From Escherichia phage ECO07P3: a DNA stretch of 64,000 bases. Made by a program: the position numbers and the translations under genes. This document shows positions 3,196 to 51,883 of this stretch, piece by piece. The notes under the pieces are model-generated. The model worked only from the letters and a program-made list of their open reading frames with translations, did not search any database and was not told the origin of the DNA. The stretch is from the sequence record OP172786. The stretch is one strand, 5' to 3'. How positions within the stretch are numbered: position 1 is the stretch's first letter; the number at the start of each line of letters is the position of its first letter.

Positions 3196-3441
3196 TTAAT
3201 TACCACGGGCTGCATTAGCAACGGCATAAGCGTACTGAACATTAGCGTCCTTAAACGTACCTTTAGAGGTATCTATTTCTGCCTTAAAGCCGCCTTTAGC
3301 CATAACATCAGCAAATTCTTTACGGAAGGCCATTGCATCAAGACCTTTCCATGATGATTTGTGCTTAGCGAATTCAAGACCAGCGTAGTTGACAGCTTTA
3401 GCCAATTTATTATCAATGACCCATTTACCGGCTTTAGGCAC
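3196..3441 (-). CDS. Hypothetical Lys/Ala-rich small protein (GTG start)
   Basis: 81 aa ORF. I checked the start codon: it is GTG (plus cac at 3439-3441). Frame is open upstream to 3576 with no ATG. No resemblance to the DenV C-terminus. Confidence 0.35.
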   Translation of the reverse strand: MPKAGKWVIDNKLAKAVNYAGLEFAKHKSSWKGLDAMAFRKEFADVMAKGGFKAEIDTSKGTFKDANVQYAYAVANAARGN

Positions 3442-3473
3442 AAACTTCGGGCCTTTTTGTTTAGAGAACAGTT

Positions 3474-3710
3474 TTAAATTCCAGCGATTAACTCGATTTG
3501 GCGTAAACGTAAAAATTCGAGTTTGTTGTAAAAGAATGTTACGTGGCCTGTGCCTAAGATAAATGTTGGAGAGATTTTAAAATCCTTTACACGTTTACCG
3601 TTTTGAACATGTTTACGGACTGCACCAAATACGCGTGGTAATTCACGATACTCAGCCATAAGATGTTGGTCGGTCAGTTCGGAAACGAGTGTTAAATTGA
3701 TACGAGTCAT
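3474..3710 (-). CDS. denV: Endonuclease V (DenV, pyrimidine-dimer glycosylase) homolog, truncated at ~78 aa versus 138 aa in T4; possible pseudogene
   Basis: [35 protein letters not shown]...[20 protein letters not shown] then stop. N-terminal catalytic residues (Thr2, Arg3, Arg22, Glu23, Arg26) are present; the C-terminal ~60 residues including the aromatic WYKYY segment are absent. The real start is the internal Met of the ORF-track ORF. Confidence 0.65.
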
Positions 3711-3734
3711 AATTTCCTCCAAGTAGTTGATGAA

Positions 3735-4536: not shown

Positions 4537-4572
4537 AATACCTCCTAAGTATTTATAGAAGGTATTTATAAA

Positions 4573-8374: not shown

Positions 8375-8414
8375 TTTATTCTCCAAGTTGTTTTCTGTAT
8401 CAGTAGTTGATAGT

Positions 8415-8450
8415 TGTATAGTACCACGGAAGAACATGGATGTAAACAGT
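8415..8450 (-). promoter_or_regulatory. Early promoter (minus strand)
   Basis: Minus strand TTTACA, 17 nt, TACTAT, then ggagaataaaATG. Confidence 0.4.
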
Positions 8451-8580
8451 TTTGTGAAAAAATTTTAAAAAGTTTTAGGGAATTCTAGGGAAGGGATGGG
8501 CAATTAAAGGATAGGATAATATATTATAAAGGGTATAAACTAAATGATGCCTAGAGAGGCGCGGAAAGGCCTAGATACCA

Positions 8581-8605
8581 AAAAGCCCCAACCTTTTGGT
8601 CGGGG
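8581..8605 (-). terminator. Rho-independent terminator (minus strand)
   Basis: Minus-strand reading ccccgacc-aaaa-ggttgggg followed by cttttt. Confidence 0.6.
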
Positions 8606-8614
8606 TTAAGAATG

Positions 8615-8884
8615 TTATTTGATTTGTTTAGCAGACCAAATGCGGTCTTTAATAATTTTTTGGATGTCTTCAACATACTCAAGAGAGTGAACATGTGGAT
8701 TATCTTTGAAACTATAGGCACGGGCTAACTTTTGGCCTTCGGTTTTGATTACTAAAAGCTCTTTAAGGATAGCTTCATACTTAGCGATAATTCCTTTAAC
8801 AATATTTTTTTTCTTGTGTAGCTTTAGGATCTGCTTTAGGAGCAGGTTTACCCGAAGCCTTTGCAAAAGCAGCACCAGTAGCAA
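8615..8884 (-). CDS. Doubtful ORF; overlaps the 3' end of the upstream IP-like gene
   Basis: 89 aa ORF. I found no in-frame ATG/GTG/TTG downstream of the overlap, so the start is unresolved. Confidence 0.25.
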   Translation of the reverse strand: MLLVLLLQRLRVNLLLKQILKLHKKKNIVKGIIAKYEAILKELLVIKTEGQKLARAYSFKDNPHVHSLEYVEDIQKIIKDRIWSAKQIK

Positions 8885-9089
8885 CTAAACTTTTCCAGGC
8901 CATACTAACCGCATTTCCCGTAAATCCTTCGGCTTTCATATCACGAGCAAATTGGAATCGTGATTCATCGGAAGCATCTTTATAGGAATATTTACCCGCG
9001 GCAATGGCAGCTTTTGCAACAGCTTGAATTTCAGTGCTAGATGCTTCATTTAACACCGCTTCATTTAAAAATTGAGCATATGATTTCAT
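8796..9089 (-). CDS. Internal-protein-like gene with capsid-targeting sequence, in the e-to-tRNA region
   Basis: 97 aa; N-terminus MKSYAQFLNEAVLNEA fits the capsid-targeting consensus; Ala/Lys-rich body; flanked by terminator hairpins on both sides. Confidence 0.6.
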   Translation of the reverse strand: MKSYAQFLNEAVLNEASSTEIQAVAKAAIAAGKYSYKDASDESRFQFARDMKAEGFTGNAVSMAWKSLVATGAAFAKASGKPAPKADPKATQEKKYC

Positions 9090-9130
9090 CTTATTTCCTG
9101 TTTTAATTCGTGGTTTTAATATACTTATTT

Positions 9131-9162
9131 ATACTAAAAAGCCCCAACCTTTCGGTCGGGGC
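9131..9162 (-). terminator. Rho-independent terminator (minus strand)
   Basis: Minus-strand reading gccccgacc-gaaa-ggttggggc followed by ttttt; near-duplicate of the hairpin at 8581-8605. Confidence 0.65.
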
Positions 9163-9170
9163 TAAGCCTT

Positions 9171-9470
9171 GCGGCAACCTTGTCGGGGTTCCACCTGCTA
9201 AGGCAAGTGTTTGTACGAAACGCCGGGATTCGAACCCGGTTATTAAGCAGTTGACGCTACTTAATATTTTTAAAAGGCCATATCTCGACCATATCCGAAC
9301 GTTCCGTCAAAAACGCTACTCGGCTTACGGCAAAGATATTTCCTCGAATCGATAATTCTGTGCGCCGTTTCTGCTGTGATGTAAGGGGATATTAATAAAT
9401 CATAAAGATTTATTAAGACCAGTCCTTACACAGGGAACATCAGTCCGACGACTTACCGGTAGCGACCCGG
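9171..9470 (-). ncRNA. Candidate small stable RNA region, comparable to T4 RNA C / RNA D
   Basis: 300 nt with no ORF between the 116-aa ORF and the terminator; contains a tRNA T-arm-like element (minus-strand ccgggTTCGAATcccgg, plus 9223-9239). Inferred, not demonstrated. Confidence 0.3.
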
Positions 9471-9474
9471 TTTC

Positions 9475-9825
9475 TTAATATTCTTTTAAAGCATCAATCT
9501 GTTCACGACGTTTACGCCATAAATCAATTGCTTCATACGCAGATTCAGCATTTCGAATTGGACGGCATTTATATAAAGACTCGTGATTTTGATATTGCGT
9601 AGATAACGTAATTTTATCTAAAAGGTCTTTACGTTCAAAGTATTCGTAACCATCTAAGCCAAATGAACGATTTTTGAGAAATTGCCAATGACCATATTCG
9701 TTTTCGACATAAACATAATCCGCGTGTTGATAAAGCAAATTAATTACACGTTCAGAAATAACAGTGTCATTGTGATTAAAATAAAATGTTAAATCATGAA
9801 CTACTAAATAAACATTACCTTTCAT
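9475..9825 (-). CDS. Hypothetical protein (116 aa)
   Basis: ORF immediately downstream of tRNA-Arg; no recognisable domain. Confidence 0.4.
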   Translation of the reverse strand: MKGNVYLVVHDLTFYFNHNDTVISERVINLLYQHADYVYVENEYGHWQFLKNRSFGLDGYEYFERKDLLDKITLSTQYQNHESLYKCRPIRNAESAYEAIDLWRKRREQIDALKEY

Positions 9826-9841: not shown

Positions 9842-9917
9842 TGGTCGAGGCAGTAGGGATCGAACCTACGACCTAGGACTTAGAAGGTCCTTGCTCTTCC
9901 TTCTGAGCTATGCCCCG
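9842..9917 (-). tRNA. tRNA-Arg (anticodon TCT)
   Basis: Cloverleaf folded by hand from the reverse complement; anticodon loop cTTCTaa; T-loop GGTTCGATCC; CCA encoded. Confidence 0.85.
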
Positions 9918-9921
9918 TAAT

Positions 9922-9997
9922 TGGGGTGACCGATGGGAGTCGAACCCATGACTACGAGAATCACAATCTCGAGTTCTACCAACTGAACTACGGCCAC
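9922..9997 (-). tRNA. tRNA-His (anticodon GTG)
   Basis: Anticodon stem cgaga/tctcg with loop ttGTGat; T-loop GGGTTCGACTCCC. Not part of the T4 set as I recall it. Confidence 0.75.
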
Positions 9998-10111
9998 ATT
10001 AATACCTACTCCAACAATCAAGATGTCTTCACACGAAATTAAGAGAAGAGTGATCAGTTCAACCCCGATAATCGCGTCAAGTAGATATTAATGTGACAAT
10101 TGTCACAAATT

Positions 10112-10186
10112 TGGCGGACGTGATAGGATTCGAACCTATAACCAATCGCTTAACAGGCGATCGCTCTGCCATTGAGCTACACATCC
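10112..10186 (-). tRNA. tRNA-Asn (anticodon GTT)
   Basis: Anticodon stem atcgc/gcgat with loop ctGTTaa; T-loop GGTTCGAATCC; CCA encoded. Confidence 0.8.
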
Positions 10187-10190
10187 AAAT

Positions 10191-10277
10191 TGGTGGGGAG
10201 TGATGGAGTCGAACCACCCGAGTCGCAATGACAATGGATTTACAGTCCACACCGCTACCTCTACGGGATAACTCCCC
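10191..10277 (-). tRNA. tRNA-Tyr (anticodon GTA), long variable arm
   Basis: Anticodon loop ctGTAaa; class II variable arm; T-loop GGTTCGACTCC; CCA encoded. Confidence 0.75.
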
Positions 10278-10290
10278 TTAATTCTTAATT

Positions 10291-10365
10291 TGGTGGCCCT
10301 GGGTGGAATTGAACCACCATCTGGCGATTATGAGTCGCTTGCTTGAACCTTCCAGCTACAGGGCC
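10291..10365 (-). tRNA. tRNA with CAT anticodon (Met, or Ile if lysidine-modified as in T4 tRNA-Ile)
   Basis: Anticodon loop ctCATaa; T-loop GGTTCAATTCC; CCA encoded. Confidence 0.75.
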
Positions 10366-10366
10366 T

Positions 10367-10443
10367 TGGTGCTGATTGACGGAATCGAACCGCCGACATC
10401 CTCATTACAAGTGAGTTGCTCTACCTACTGAGCTAAATCAGCA
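10367..10443 (-). tRNA. tRNA-Thr (anticodon TGT)
   Basis: Anticodon loop cTTGTaa; T-loop GGTTCGATTCC; CCA encoded. Confidence 0.8.
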
Positions 10444-10447
10444 AAAC

Positions 10448-10537
10448 TGGCGGAGGCGATAGGATTTGAACCTATGAGTCGCCGGAGCGACTGCCGGTTT
10501 TCAAGACCGGTGCATTAAACCACTCTGCCACGCCTCC
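10448..10537 (-). tRNA. tRNA-Ser (anticodon TGA), long variable arm
   Basis: Anticodon stem ccggt/accgg with loop cTTGAaa; long variable arm; T-loop GGTTCAAATCC; CCA encoded. Confidence 0.85.
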
Positions 10538-10539
10538 AG

Positions 10540-10613
10540 TCTCCATACAAGGATTTGAACCTTGGGCCTCCTGATCCCAAATCAGGCGCTCTACCAAACT
10601 GAGCTACACGGAG
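10540..10613 (-). tRNA. tRNA-Pro (anticodon TGG)
   Basis: Anticodon stem cctga/tcagg with loop ttTGGga; T-loop GGTTCAAATCC; CCA not encoded. Confidence 0.8.
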
Positions 10614-10623
10614 TAAATTAAAT

Positions 10624-10697
<74 letters not shown>

Positions 10698-10702
10698 AAA
10701 TT

Positions 10703-10789
10703 TGGTGCGAGAAGTGGGACTCGAACCCACAAGGAAATCATTCCGCAGCATTTTAAGTGCTGTGCCTTTACCAATTTGACCATTCTCGC
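10703..10789 (-). tRNA. tRNA-Leu (anticodon TAA), long variable arm
   Basis: Anticodon loop cTTAAaa; long variable arm; T-loop GGGTTCGAGTCCC; CCA encoded. Confidence 0.85.
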
Positions 10790-10790
10790 G

Positions 10791-10863
10791 CTGGGAATAA
10801 AGGACTCGAACCTTTGCATCCTGGAATCAAAATCCAGTGCCTTACCAACTTGGCTAATTCCCA
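10791..10863 (-). tRNA. tRNA-Gln (anticodon TTG)
   Basis: Anticodon stem ctgga/tccag with loop ttTTGat; T-loop GGTTCGAGTCC; first gene of the cluster in transcription order. Confidence 0.85.
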
Positions 10864-11841: not shown

Positions 11842-11860
11842 TTTATTCTCCTCTGTAGTT

Positions 11861-11905
11861 GATAGGGTAATAGTATCACTACCCCATCTAAAAGTAAACT
11901 GTTTT
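11861..11905 (-). promoter_or_regulatory. Early promoter plus stem-loop cassette
   Basis: Minus strand: TTTAC, 17 nt, TACTAT; embedded inverted repeat gatagggta/taccccatc; followed by gaggagaataaaATG. Confidence 0.45.
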
Positions 11906-11911
11906 TATAAA

Positions 11912-12220
11912 CTATTTTATTCCGCGTGATGCAATTGTGTTCTGCCGTTTAACACCAGTTTGTTTAAAGTCATGATTGTCGATTTGATCGGTACGAGCAA
12001 CACCGAATGATGATTTAATCTTAGCTTTAGATCCTTTAGTTATAGAAATAAACATCTCGGAAGCCCCTTTCTTAAAGTCCGAGGCGATTACTTCAACGCC
12101 GTTCTTAGCAAGTGACCTCAGAATTGCCTCCGCGTACTCATCATCAAGACTCGCCTGAGTATTAATAACGAATGTCTTTGGTGCAGCCGCTTCATTGATA
12201 AATTCTTGATATGTTTTCAT
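11912..12220 (-). CDS. Internal protein with capsid-targeting sequence, at the ipI locus
   Basis: MKTYQEFINEA from the internal Met is a near-consensus capsid-targeting sequence; lies next to 57B where T4 ipI sits. Exact start (12220 or 12232) is uncertain. Confidence 0.7.
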   Translation of the reverse strand: MKTYQEFINEAAAPKTFVINTQASLDDEYAEAILRSLAKNGVEVIASDFKKGASEMFISITKGSKAKIKSSFGVARTDQIDNHDFKQTGVKRQNTIASRGIK

Positions 12221-12249
12221 TTTGATTTCCATTTAGTTTTGTTTTGATA

Positions 12250-12290
12250 GGGTAATAGTATCACAACTAAACCACCGTGTAAACAATTTA
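12250..12290 (-). promoter_or_regulatory. Early promoter (sigma70-like -35 TTTACA / -10 TACTAT)
   Basis: Minus strand GTTTACAC, 17 nt, TACTAT, upstream of the IP gene. Confidence 0.4.
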
Positions 12291-12560
12291 TTTTAAATAA
12301 ATTGCATATTTTTTATAACCAGCCGTCTCGTGACGCAGACCTTTTTCATTAGCAAAGCGTTCAATATTATTAATTTGATTCTGATCAAGTTCTGAAATAT
12401 CAAATACAAAAAAGTTTCGTTTATTTCCTAACGTTACATGATTCGTCAAATCAATGTTATAAAGATGATTTATATTATCAATCATAGTCTTAACAGATTT
12501 GCTAATTTTTACTTCTTCATTAAGAGCAGATTCAACGATAAACTCTTTGAAAGTTTTCAT
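12288..12560 (-). CDS. Second internal-protein-like gene with capsid-targeting sequence
   Basis: 90 aa; N-terminus MKTFKEFIVESALNEE fits the capsid-targeting consensus. Confidence 0.6.
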   Translation of the reverse strand: MKTFKEFIVESALNEEVKISKSVKTMIDNINHLYNIDLTNHVTLGNKRNFFVFDISELDQNQINNIERFANEKGLRHETAGYKKYAIYLK

Positions 12561-12580
12561 TTTATTTTCCTAATTAATTT

Positions 12581-12625
12581 TGATGAGGTAATAGTATCAC
12601 TACCTCATCAACGTGTAAACAACTT
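12581..12625 (-). promoter_or_regulatory. Early promoter plus perfect 10-bp stem-loop cassette
   Basis: Perfect inverted repeat tgatgaggta ... tacctcatca around the TACTAT -10, with -35 TTTACA upstream (minus strand); followed by ggaaaataaaATG. Confidence 0.45.
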
Positions 12626-12632
12626 TGTGAAA

Positions 12633-13329
<697 letters not shown>

Positions 13330-51640: not shown

Positions 51641-51883
51641 TTGGAGAAAAAGATGTTACTAGAATTTAAACAATTTCTTTATGAAGCTTCTATTGATGAA
51701 TTTATGGGTAAAATTGCCTCTTGTCAAACATTAGAAGGTTTAGAAGAACTTGAAGCTTATTACAAGAAAAGAGTTAAAGAAACTGAATTAAAAGATACTG
51801 ATGACATCTCTGTGAGAGATGCTTTGGCAGGAAAAAGAGCTGAATTAGAAGATTCAGACGATGAAGTAGAAGAAAGCTTTTAA
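51641..51883 (+). CDS. uvsW.1: UvsW.1 small acidic protein
   Basis: 80 aa ORF immediately downstream of uvsW, as in T4. Confidence 0.75.
   Translation: MEKKMLLEFKQFLYEASIDEFMGKIASCQTLEGLEELEAYYKKRVKETELKDTDDISVRDALAGKRAELEDSDDEVEESF

Follow-up and report, generated by a model that had tools for sequence, protein, structure and literature searches.

The DNA analysed here, a window of 64 kb from Escherichia phage ECO07P3 that comprises the whole stretch under study, is a genome segment of a Tequatrovirus, that is, a T4-like phage. The minus-strand order begins with gp1, 57A, 57B, two ip genes, trna.4, trna.3, trna.2, and eleven tRNAs, and it continues through a 116-aa ORF, a homologue of rnaD/rnaC, the cassette that is the subject of this report, and e.8 through e.6, on to e. 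The cassette lies between the stable RNA gene rnaC and e.8, which places it outside both classical ip loci, ipI and ipII/ipIII, as the original prediction had it. The 1 kb around the cassette is 94–97% identical to hundreds of T-even phage records. The features of the cassette and its flanks are listed in Table 1.

Table 1. Features of the rnaC–e.8 interval, in window coordinates.
Feature	Coordinates	Strand	Basis
rnaD/rnaC homologue (T4 stable RNAs), upstream of the cassette	9167..9470	-	Comparison with the T4 record; the match carries an rnaC/rnaD annotation in RB3 and RB55
Upstream 36-nt repeat copy with terminator hairpin R (stem-loop 9140-9163, then U5)	9131..9166	-	Repeat search, RNA fold
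T4-type late-promoter motif TATAAATA, 2 nt past the repeat, 37 nt before the ATG	9126..9133	-	Motif match
Ribosome-binding site AGGAAA	9094..9099	-	Sequence
ORF97 (N-terminal part of a phrog_2280 protein: leader, three-helix domain, Lys/Pro-rich linker; ends ...QEKKYC*)	8796..9089	-	ORF translation, profile match
Capsid-targeting-type leader, codons 1-15, MKSYAQFLNE/AVLNE	9045..9089	-	Pattern; Y4, F7, L/I8, E10 per PMC9026906
A8 homopolymer (A7 in intact genes, CAA GAA AAA AAT, or GAGAAAAA)	8805..8812	-	Alignment with intact genes
Stranded C-terminal frame, 63 codons plus stop, NIVKGII...RIWSAKQIK, no start of its own	8615..8806	-	Open frame; purifying selection; model
Downstream 36-nt repeat copy with terminator hairpin L (stem-loop 8586-8605, then U5)	8575..8610	-	Repeat search, RNA fold
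e.8 early promoter (TTTACA, 17 nt, TACTAT, with TG)	8418..8446	-	One of a repeated early-promoter family

Several features of the neighbourhood are worth recording. The 116-aa ORF (9475–9825, minus strand), between tRNA-Arg and the rnaD homologue, matches phrog_3355, a family of unknown function. The adjoining region, 9842–10863, has 11 tRNA genes (His, Asn, Tyr, and Met among them) versus eight in T4, and the cluster is without the segB homing-endonuclease gene that the clusters of T4 and G28 carry. An Rfam scan of the cassette region returned tRNAs only. The early promoter of e.8, some 140 nt beyond the downstream hairpin, belongs to an early-promoter block of about 61 nt that is present in four copies, at 8407–8467, 11859–11919, 12244–12304, and 12580–12640. 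The copies are 64–100% identical to the reference copy and lie ahead of e.8, trna.4, and the two genes of the ipI locus. Repeated blocks of this kind have been proposed to mediate the shuffling of ip genes.

The cassette is bracketed by a direct repeat. Alignment of the hairpin flanks gives two copies of a 36-nt sequence, identical at 33 of the 36 positions and 556 nt apart. Each copy contains a hairpin with U5 after the stem, so that the claim of two near-identical terminator hairpins flanking the gene holds. Hairpin R folds as RNA at −20.3 kcal/mol, with a 10-bp stem, a GAAA loop, and the U5 tract; hairpin L folds at −15.1 kcal/mol, with an 8-bp stem, an AAAA loop, and U5. Both look like intrinsic terminators. 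Hairpin R, which is the same hairpin as the single one of T4 and is annotated as a terminator in the records of G28 and fPS-65, is predicted to end the tRNA/rnaD/rnaC transcription unit. A hairpin family spread through the window was considered and rejected: a search with the 28-nt hairpin sequence, with up to three mismatches allowed, finds minus-strand matches at 9136–9163 and 8580–8607 only in the 64 kb, where none is expected (100 shuffles).

The upstream hairpin is followed by TATAAATA, the T4-type late-promoter motif, which occurs 23 times in the window against nine expected. The exact motif stands after the hairpin in close relatives and in the contigs L008 and L011, and AATAAATA takes its place in L009 and L010. 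The motif or a one-mismatch variant of it follows the hairpin in every locus examined that has the window's type of gene (type 1), divergent lineages with other surrounding bases included. The fPS-65 record labels it "predicted late promoter", and we read it likewise, as a predicted late promoter that has been conserved. Two copies of the motif, 13 nt apart, also lie just upstream of the lysozyme gene e (4550–4570, minus strand).

The reading frame in the cassette, ORF97, encodes 97 amino acid residues from an ATG, with AGGA 7–10 nt before it, and begins MKSYAQFLNEAVLNEASS. The original prediction was that its N-terminus fits the capsid-targeting consensus of the T4 internal proteins (IPs). 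In T4, the capsid-targeting sequence consists of the first 10 residues of IPIII, MKTYQEFIAE, and these suffice for packaging, foreign proteins included (PMC9026906, PMC3012670). Residues 4 and 7 act in targeting, and residues 8 and 10 in processing (PMC9026906), with gp21 cutting after L/I-x-E (PMC9026906, PMC3012670). The leader of ORF97, MKSYAQFLNE, matches the four experimentally defined positions: Y4 and F7 are present, and L8-N9-E10 supplies the gp21 motif. A second L-N-E, L13-N14-E15, stands in tandem with the first, and the two are candidate gp21 cleavage sites, at either of which the protein may be cut. Gene 21 itself lies outside the window.

The leader is specific within the window and conserved beyond it. 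We searched candidate starts of at least 40 codons with the strict pattern MK[ST][YF]x[EQ]F[LI]xE, using 20 codon-shuffled windows as a control. The pattern matched four of the 1102 candidate starts in the 64 kb and none across the shuffled windows. The four are exactly the ORFs for which a leader had been claimed, and the other three match phrog_7673, phrog_2667, and phrog_3499, all labelled "internal head protein". The ribosome-binding site and leader DNA of ORF97 is 70–76% identical to the 5′ ends of the two ipI-locus genes (12185–12230 and 12525–12570). In relatives whose mature parts are only 40–55% identical, the leader is retained, as MKTYNEFL.., MLEYSEFLKE, MKFKEFLAE, or MLKFNEFLAE, and it is conserved throughout the protein family to which ORF97 belongs, including a 187-aa paralogue described below. 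The mature product is basic and Lys-rich, with a pI of 9.3–9.6. With the four critical positions kept and the leader conserved across the family, the predicted leader is, by its sequence, a genuine capsid-targeting-type one.

Does the leader act in packaging? The intact orthologue of the Yersinia phage fD1, Gp140, was detected by LC-MS/MS of purified virions at a strict threshold (PMC8309999, Table S3). The "particle-associated" list that flags Gp140 is unspecific, as it holds 113 of the 277 phage proteins, with enzymes such as DenV and NudE and also lysozyme e among them, along with 672 host proteins; the list therefore shows production more than incorporation. The fD1 proteome shows that Gp140 is made, and it is compatible with packaging without establishing it. 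One may then suppose that the leader is a likeness with no packaging role, that the family consists of ordinary late or accessory proteins of the cytoplasm, and that detection in fD1 particles reflects carry-over. The family is called an internal protein in no database, and a looser form of the leader pattern also matches the UvsW.1 homologue, which fits such a proposal. The retention of all four critical positions and of the L-x-E motif at low overall identity and in the paralogue speaks against it, as do the nucleotide-level similarity to the ip genes, the lack of strict-pattern matches in shuffled sequence, the conserved predicted late promoter, and the IP-like composition. We consider a leader without a packaging role unlikely. 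The UvsW.1 homologue itself (51653–51883, plus strand) is a protein of 76 aa that adjoins uvsW and starts MLLEFKQFLYEAS. It is not known as a head component, and its leader likeness is either chance or an unexplored resemblance.

ORF97 belongs to phrog_2280, a profile of 178 positions with the label "unknown function". Its members are proteins of about 155–190 aa encoded at the tRNA/rnaC–e.8 locus. They share the T4-type leader, a small three-helix domain, a linker rich in Lys and Pro, and a strongly conserved helical hairpin, and the gene and its 187-aa paralogue are found in at least 511 sequenced phages. In database records, the family members are always annotated as hypothetical, and in none as an internal protein. 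Pfam gives no significant match to the intact or the truncated protein, nor to the paralogue, and ORF97 falls in phrog_2280 instead of the annotated IP families (Pfam IPI_T4; PHROG "internal head protein"). Since IP families share only the leader, a missing IP-family match is no argument against the mechanism considered below. An AlphaFold2 model of the intact protein (pLDDT 73.8) has a leader helix, a three-helix domain at residues 19–78, a disordered linker at 80–87, and a long helical hairpin at 88–154. Foldseek found only the protein's own orthologue in BFVD and nothing with E < 0.8 in the PDB. Without a Pfam match or a significant structural neighbour, no activity can be inferred from the fold. 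The only distant hits of an exhaustive HMMER search (P0017–19) were rejected as spurious: they are Ig-like repeat proteins with an "AAGSYSYKAF" motif and repetition-inflated scores.

The match of ORF97 to the profile is partial. It covers positions 1–90 (E = 7e-37), and the profile reaches about 85 positions past the end of the ORF; an intact orthologue of 157 aa matches positions 1–172 (E = 2e-60). The missing part is encoded in the window in a shifted frame, 8806..8615. In CHD2BS1 and fD1, the equivalent start codon opens a 157-aa ORF that ends at the equivalent of window position 8615. The sole disruptive difference between the window and the intact genes is one extra A in a homopolymer, A8 in place of A7, at codon 94/95. 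In the window, G28, and T4_ev240, the A8 allele ends the protein at ...QEKKYC*, and ORF97 is thus the front 60% of a 157-residue gene. An evenly spaced sample was drawn from the 511 phage records with the gene, giving 55 T-even records. The 157-aa protein is matched in one piece in 50 of the 55 and in two pieces in the other five; that is, about 90% encode the 157 aa in one frame, and about 9% are frameshifted.

The stranded frame downstream of the A tract is open, and its translation is identical to that of intact alleles; it shows no decay in any frameshifted allele. Across the family, the C-terminal part has a pS of 0.63 and a pN of 0.046, a pN/pS ratio of about 0.07, compared with a pS of 0.65 and a pN of 0.175 for the N-terminal part, where the constraint is weaker. 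By these values, the C-terminal frame is under strong purifying selection. A separate start for the C-terminal domain was considered and rejected, as there is no in-frame ATG, GTG, or TTG with a ribosome-binding site downstream of the A run. It follows from the alignments that ORF97 is a frameshift-truncated allele of a conserved 157-aa gene, cut by a +1 frameshift in the A8 tract. According to the model, what the frameshift removes is the C-terminal helical hairpin.

The original prediction treated ORF 8796–9089 as a whole gene, and this part of it does not stand. A complete, separate internal-protein gene of 97 aa would have what ORF97 has, namely, an ATG, a ribosome-binding site, a leader, and a stop codon, and the records of G28 and T4_ev240 annotate an identical product of 97 aa. 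Yet the comparative data already contradict such a gene: most sampled genomes read on in one frame to 157 aa, the difference is a single A in a homopolymer, and the downstream frame, open and without a start, is better conserved than the N-terminal part. A complete gene at this position is therefore extremely improbable.

A homopolymer is a common site of sequencing error, and the remainder of the gene is undamaged; so one might ask whether the extra A is an error of assembly or sequencing, with the phage really carrying an intact 157-aa gene. The exact 97-aa product is found on nine contigs, from G28, T4_ev240, a further NCBI accession, and Logan/ENA assemblies. Occurrence in several independent sources makes an assembly error in the window unlikely, and the A8 tract is also found on different flanking haplotypes. 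We regard the error explanation as very improbable.

The same tract has been hit repeatedly. The window and G28 have the tract in common and an identical C-terminal part but are set apart by 10 synonymous changes further upstream. In T4_ev240, A8 stands on another C-terminal haplotype, and P0008, from a lineage only about 67% identical, has A8 too. An A9 allele is present in fPS-65, a +2 shift of the A9 type is deduced from the protein ends of ECO4, SfPhi01, and P0014, and P0006 is also counted as A9-type. Recurrence on different haplotypes and in divergent lineages, together with an undecayed C-terminal frame in all frameshifted alleles, could mean that the tract is functional, either as an on/off switch among A7, A8, and A9 or as a site where polymerase or ribosome slippage yields short and full-length isoforms. 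If tRNA-Lys slipped by +1 on A AAA AAA, the sequence ...QEKNIV... would be restored exactly. There is a precedent in tssM, where transcriptional slippage on an A11 run rescues the product (PMC4256274). The cassette gene resembles Citrobacter rodentium tssM1 in being interrupted at an A run with the downstream frame intact and in having a short product that lacks the C-terminal domain. Unlike tssM1, however, the window's run is only A8, shorter than runs documented as efficient slippage sites, and most relatives are in frame with A7.

Other observations also weigh against a functional tract. The run is broken by a synonymous GAG (GAG AAA AAT) in CHD2BS1 and fD1, so that neither the tract nor the out-of-frame layout is conserved among relatives as in a recoding site. 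The A9 allele of fPS-65 is otherwise identical within the gene to the intact A7 allele, and its frameshift must therefore be very recent. Neighbouring paralogues are broken by ordinary lesions: that of RB69 has lost one nucleotide outside any run, and that of KpV477 is fragmented. Such damage fits the simple decay of a dispensable gene. We judge it quite improbable that the tract has a function. Because the tract is not conserved and most genomes are in frame, we read it as a replication-slippage hot spot in a dispensable gene rather than a programmed recoding site. A bolder version, to which we give a slim chance, is that the rnaC–e.8 gap is a third IP locus in which A7 acts as a contingency switch or slippage site yielding either a two-domain form or a form with the N-terminal domain only. 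If that were true, the A7 switch would tune, per population or within a single infection, an anti-defence effector that is possibly costly or host-triggering.

The rnaC–e.8 interval exists in four states, distinguished by the spacing between the 3′ end of rnaC and the ATG of e.8. In T4 the interval is empty (266 nt). In the window, fD1, and CHD2BS1 it holds the type-1 gene only (about 821 nt); in G3F7 and RB69, a 187-aa gene only (about 953 nt); and in fPS-65 and two IMG/VR contigs, both genes in tandem (about 1500 nt). The 187-aa gene starts MKTYAEFLTEAAK and has a targeting-type leader; as it also matches phrog_2280, it is a paralogue of the ORF97 gene. At exactly the cassette point, T4 has a single hairpin and nothing inserted. 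The T4 hairpin shares its left flank with the downstream hairpin of the window and its right flank with the upstream one. T6, RB3, and RB55 are like T4, matching the flanks of the query only.

A cassette bounded by repeats, together with an empty T4 site that has one hairpin, is what recombination between repeats leaves behind when it inserts or deletes a segment. The synteny comparison with other T4-like genomes thus upholds the first half of the proposal that the gene was acquired by recombination between repeated elements. The direction is another matter. The gene or its paralogue adjoins the tRNA cluster in Tequatrovirus, in the Mosigvirus RB69, in the Jiaodavirus KpV477, where a fragmented copy follows the cluster, and in fHe-Yen9-01, where both paralogues stand in tandem after a tRNA gene. 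With the locus kept next to tRNA genes in other genera, a loss in the lineages of T4, T6, RB3, and RB55 is the simpler reading, and a gain is disfavoured. The rnaC–e.8 locus looks ancestral to the Tevenvirinae on this distribution. T4 is probably a derived deletion between the hairpins, the cassette having been lost by T4 rather than gained by ECO07P3.

Genes at this locus are often broken. In the paralogue copy of RB69 (L014, 516–1078), the loss of one nucleotide relative to L013 504–1067, at a site that is no homopolymer, has left two frames, ORF149c and ORF148c, and the copy of KpV477 (L017, 2841–3231) is fragmented too. In a divergent contig (L008, ~1450–2700), two mutually identical hairpins, both with the stem variant GGCCC...GGGCC relative to other phages, enclose the type-1 gene together with an unrelated ORF of 191 aa. 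The identity of the two suggests that the hairpin was duplicated on insertion or that the flanking copies underwent gene conversion.

In T4-type phages, recombination between repeated stem-loop/promoter elements is known to delete and swap genes (PMC4122927), and the cassette resembles the PeSL/PmSL cassettes (Arbiol 2010, PMC2839356; Comeau 2014, PMC4122927) in several ways. Its gene is bracketed by stem-loop direct repeats, the presence/absence breakpoints between close relatives lie inside the element, as the 36-nt repeat and the empty T4 site demonstrate, and alternative or tandem genes occupy the same site. In a PeSL, the stem-loop directly precedes an early promoter of the sigma-70 type with its SD and start codon, and PeSL/PmSL elements have the stem-loop fused to an early or middle promoter. 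In contrast, the repeated unit in the window is a terminator hairpin of 36 nt, after which comes the late motif; the nearest early promoter, that of e.8, stands some 140 nt past the downstream hairpin. By its sequence arrangement, then, the cassette is a late-promoter analogue and not a canonical PeSL.

The comparison with T4 IPI, IPII, and IPIII is likewise one of resemblances and differences. The phrog_2280 protein has their leader, MK[ST]Yx[EQ]F[LI]xE with Y4, F7, L/I8, and E10 and then Ala/Ser, and it is small, basic, and Lys-rich. Its gene is non-essential, patchy in distribution, and flanked by repeated regulatory sequences, as theirs are, and its ribosome-binding site and leader DNA are similar to those of the window's own ip genes. 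The differences are as follows. The gene occupies a third locus; in sequence, the mature part of its product resembles none of the annotated IP families; and two all-helical domains are predicted, where IPI* has an alpha/beta fold. The window's ipI-locus genes have an early promoter upstream, whereas the ORF97 gene has a predicted late promoter. Finally, the T4 IPs are packaged, whereas for the phrog_2280 protein packaging is predicted from the leader sequence. The ip genes of other T-even phages are the subject of Repoila et al. 1994, as cited in PMC12373910. Taken by its sequence features, the ORF97 gene is of a kind already known from phages, though unannotated, and occupies a variable, IP-type third locus.

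The best explanation of the locus, and one that we hold to be rather probable, is a one-gene late cassette that encodes a capsid-targeted protein of the phrog_2280 family, truncated here by a frameshift, with the hairpin repeats as the recombination substrate. The cassette would run from terminator hairpin to late promoter, ribosome-binding site, gene, and second terminator hairpin. We propose that the family gene is transcribed late, from TATAAATA, and that the 10-residue leader docks the protein onto the scaffolding core of the prohead. The prohead protease gp21 would cut after L-N-E10, and possibly also after L-N-E15, and the basic mature protein (pI about 9.5) would stay in the head with the DNA. 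It would be injected into the next host, where it would most likely disarm a host defence, as do Ip1–3, injected inhibitors that each block one distinct GmrSD-type restriction enzyme (PMC12373910). The anti-defence role for the family is our best guess, drawn solely by analogy with Ip1–3. The flanking hairpin repeats would serve in deleting or inserting the cassette, T4 being the deleted state. A point against the cassette model is that repeats of 36 nt are short for efficient homologous recombination.

In the window, one extra A in the A7 run, a frameshift of the slippage type, stops translation at codon 97. The truncated product keeps the leader, the N-terminal domain, and the linker and loses the conserved C-terminal hairpin, and slippage of polymerase or ribosome on the A run might yield full-length protein at a level of a few percent at most. 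The truncated protein is probably still packageable because the leader alone suffices in T4. Its activity is probably lost, wholly or in part, and it is possible that the allele is just a dead gene.

Targeting leaders, shuffling at repeated regulatory elements, and homopolymer frameshifts are all established biology, and the value of the finding is therefore incremental. All three T4 IPs have been shown to be injected GmrSD-type inhibitors (PMC12373910), which makes families with the same leader effector candidates; any further such family is a ready candidate anti-defence effector. Many carriers of this family and its paralogue are candidates for phage therapy, and the annotation of both is "hypothetical" only. 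Recognising the rnaC–e.8 locus gives a testable list of effectors and explains one of the indels between T4 and its relatives. It also carries a warning for annotation, namely, that products of 97, 108, and 111 aa come from frameshift alleles of a single gene.

A separate observation concerns the classical ipII/ipIII locus. At 3196–3722 (junction at about 3441–3483), the window is without some 0.8 kb that its closest relatives, Lutter and GRNsp7, possess, the flanks being 98% identical. The deletion is in none of the 12 best-matching records. It leaves denV stopping after about 78 codons, the ipII-like gene gone, and ORF 3196–3441 as the C-terminal part of an ipIII-like protein whose targeting leader is missing. 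It follows that IP genes, and DenV too, have been lost at this locus.
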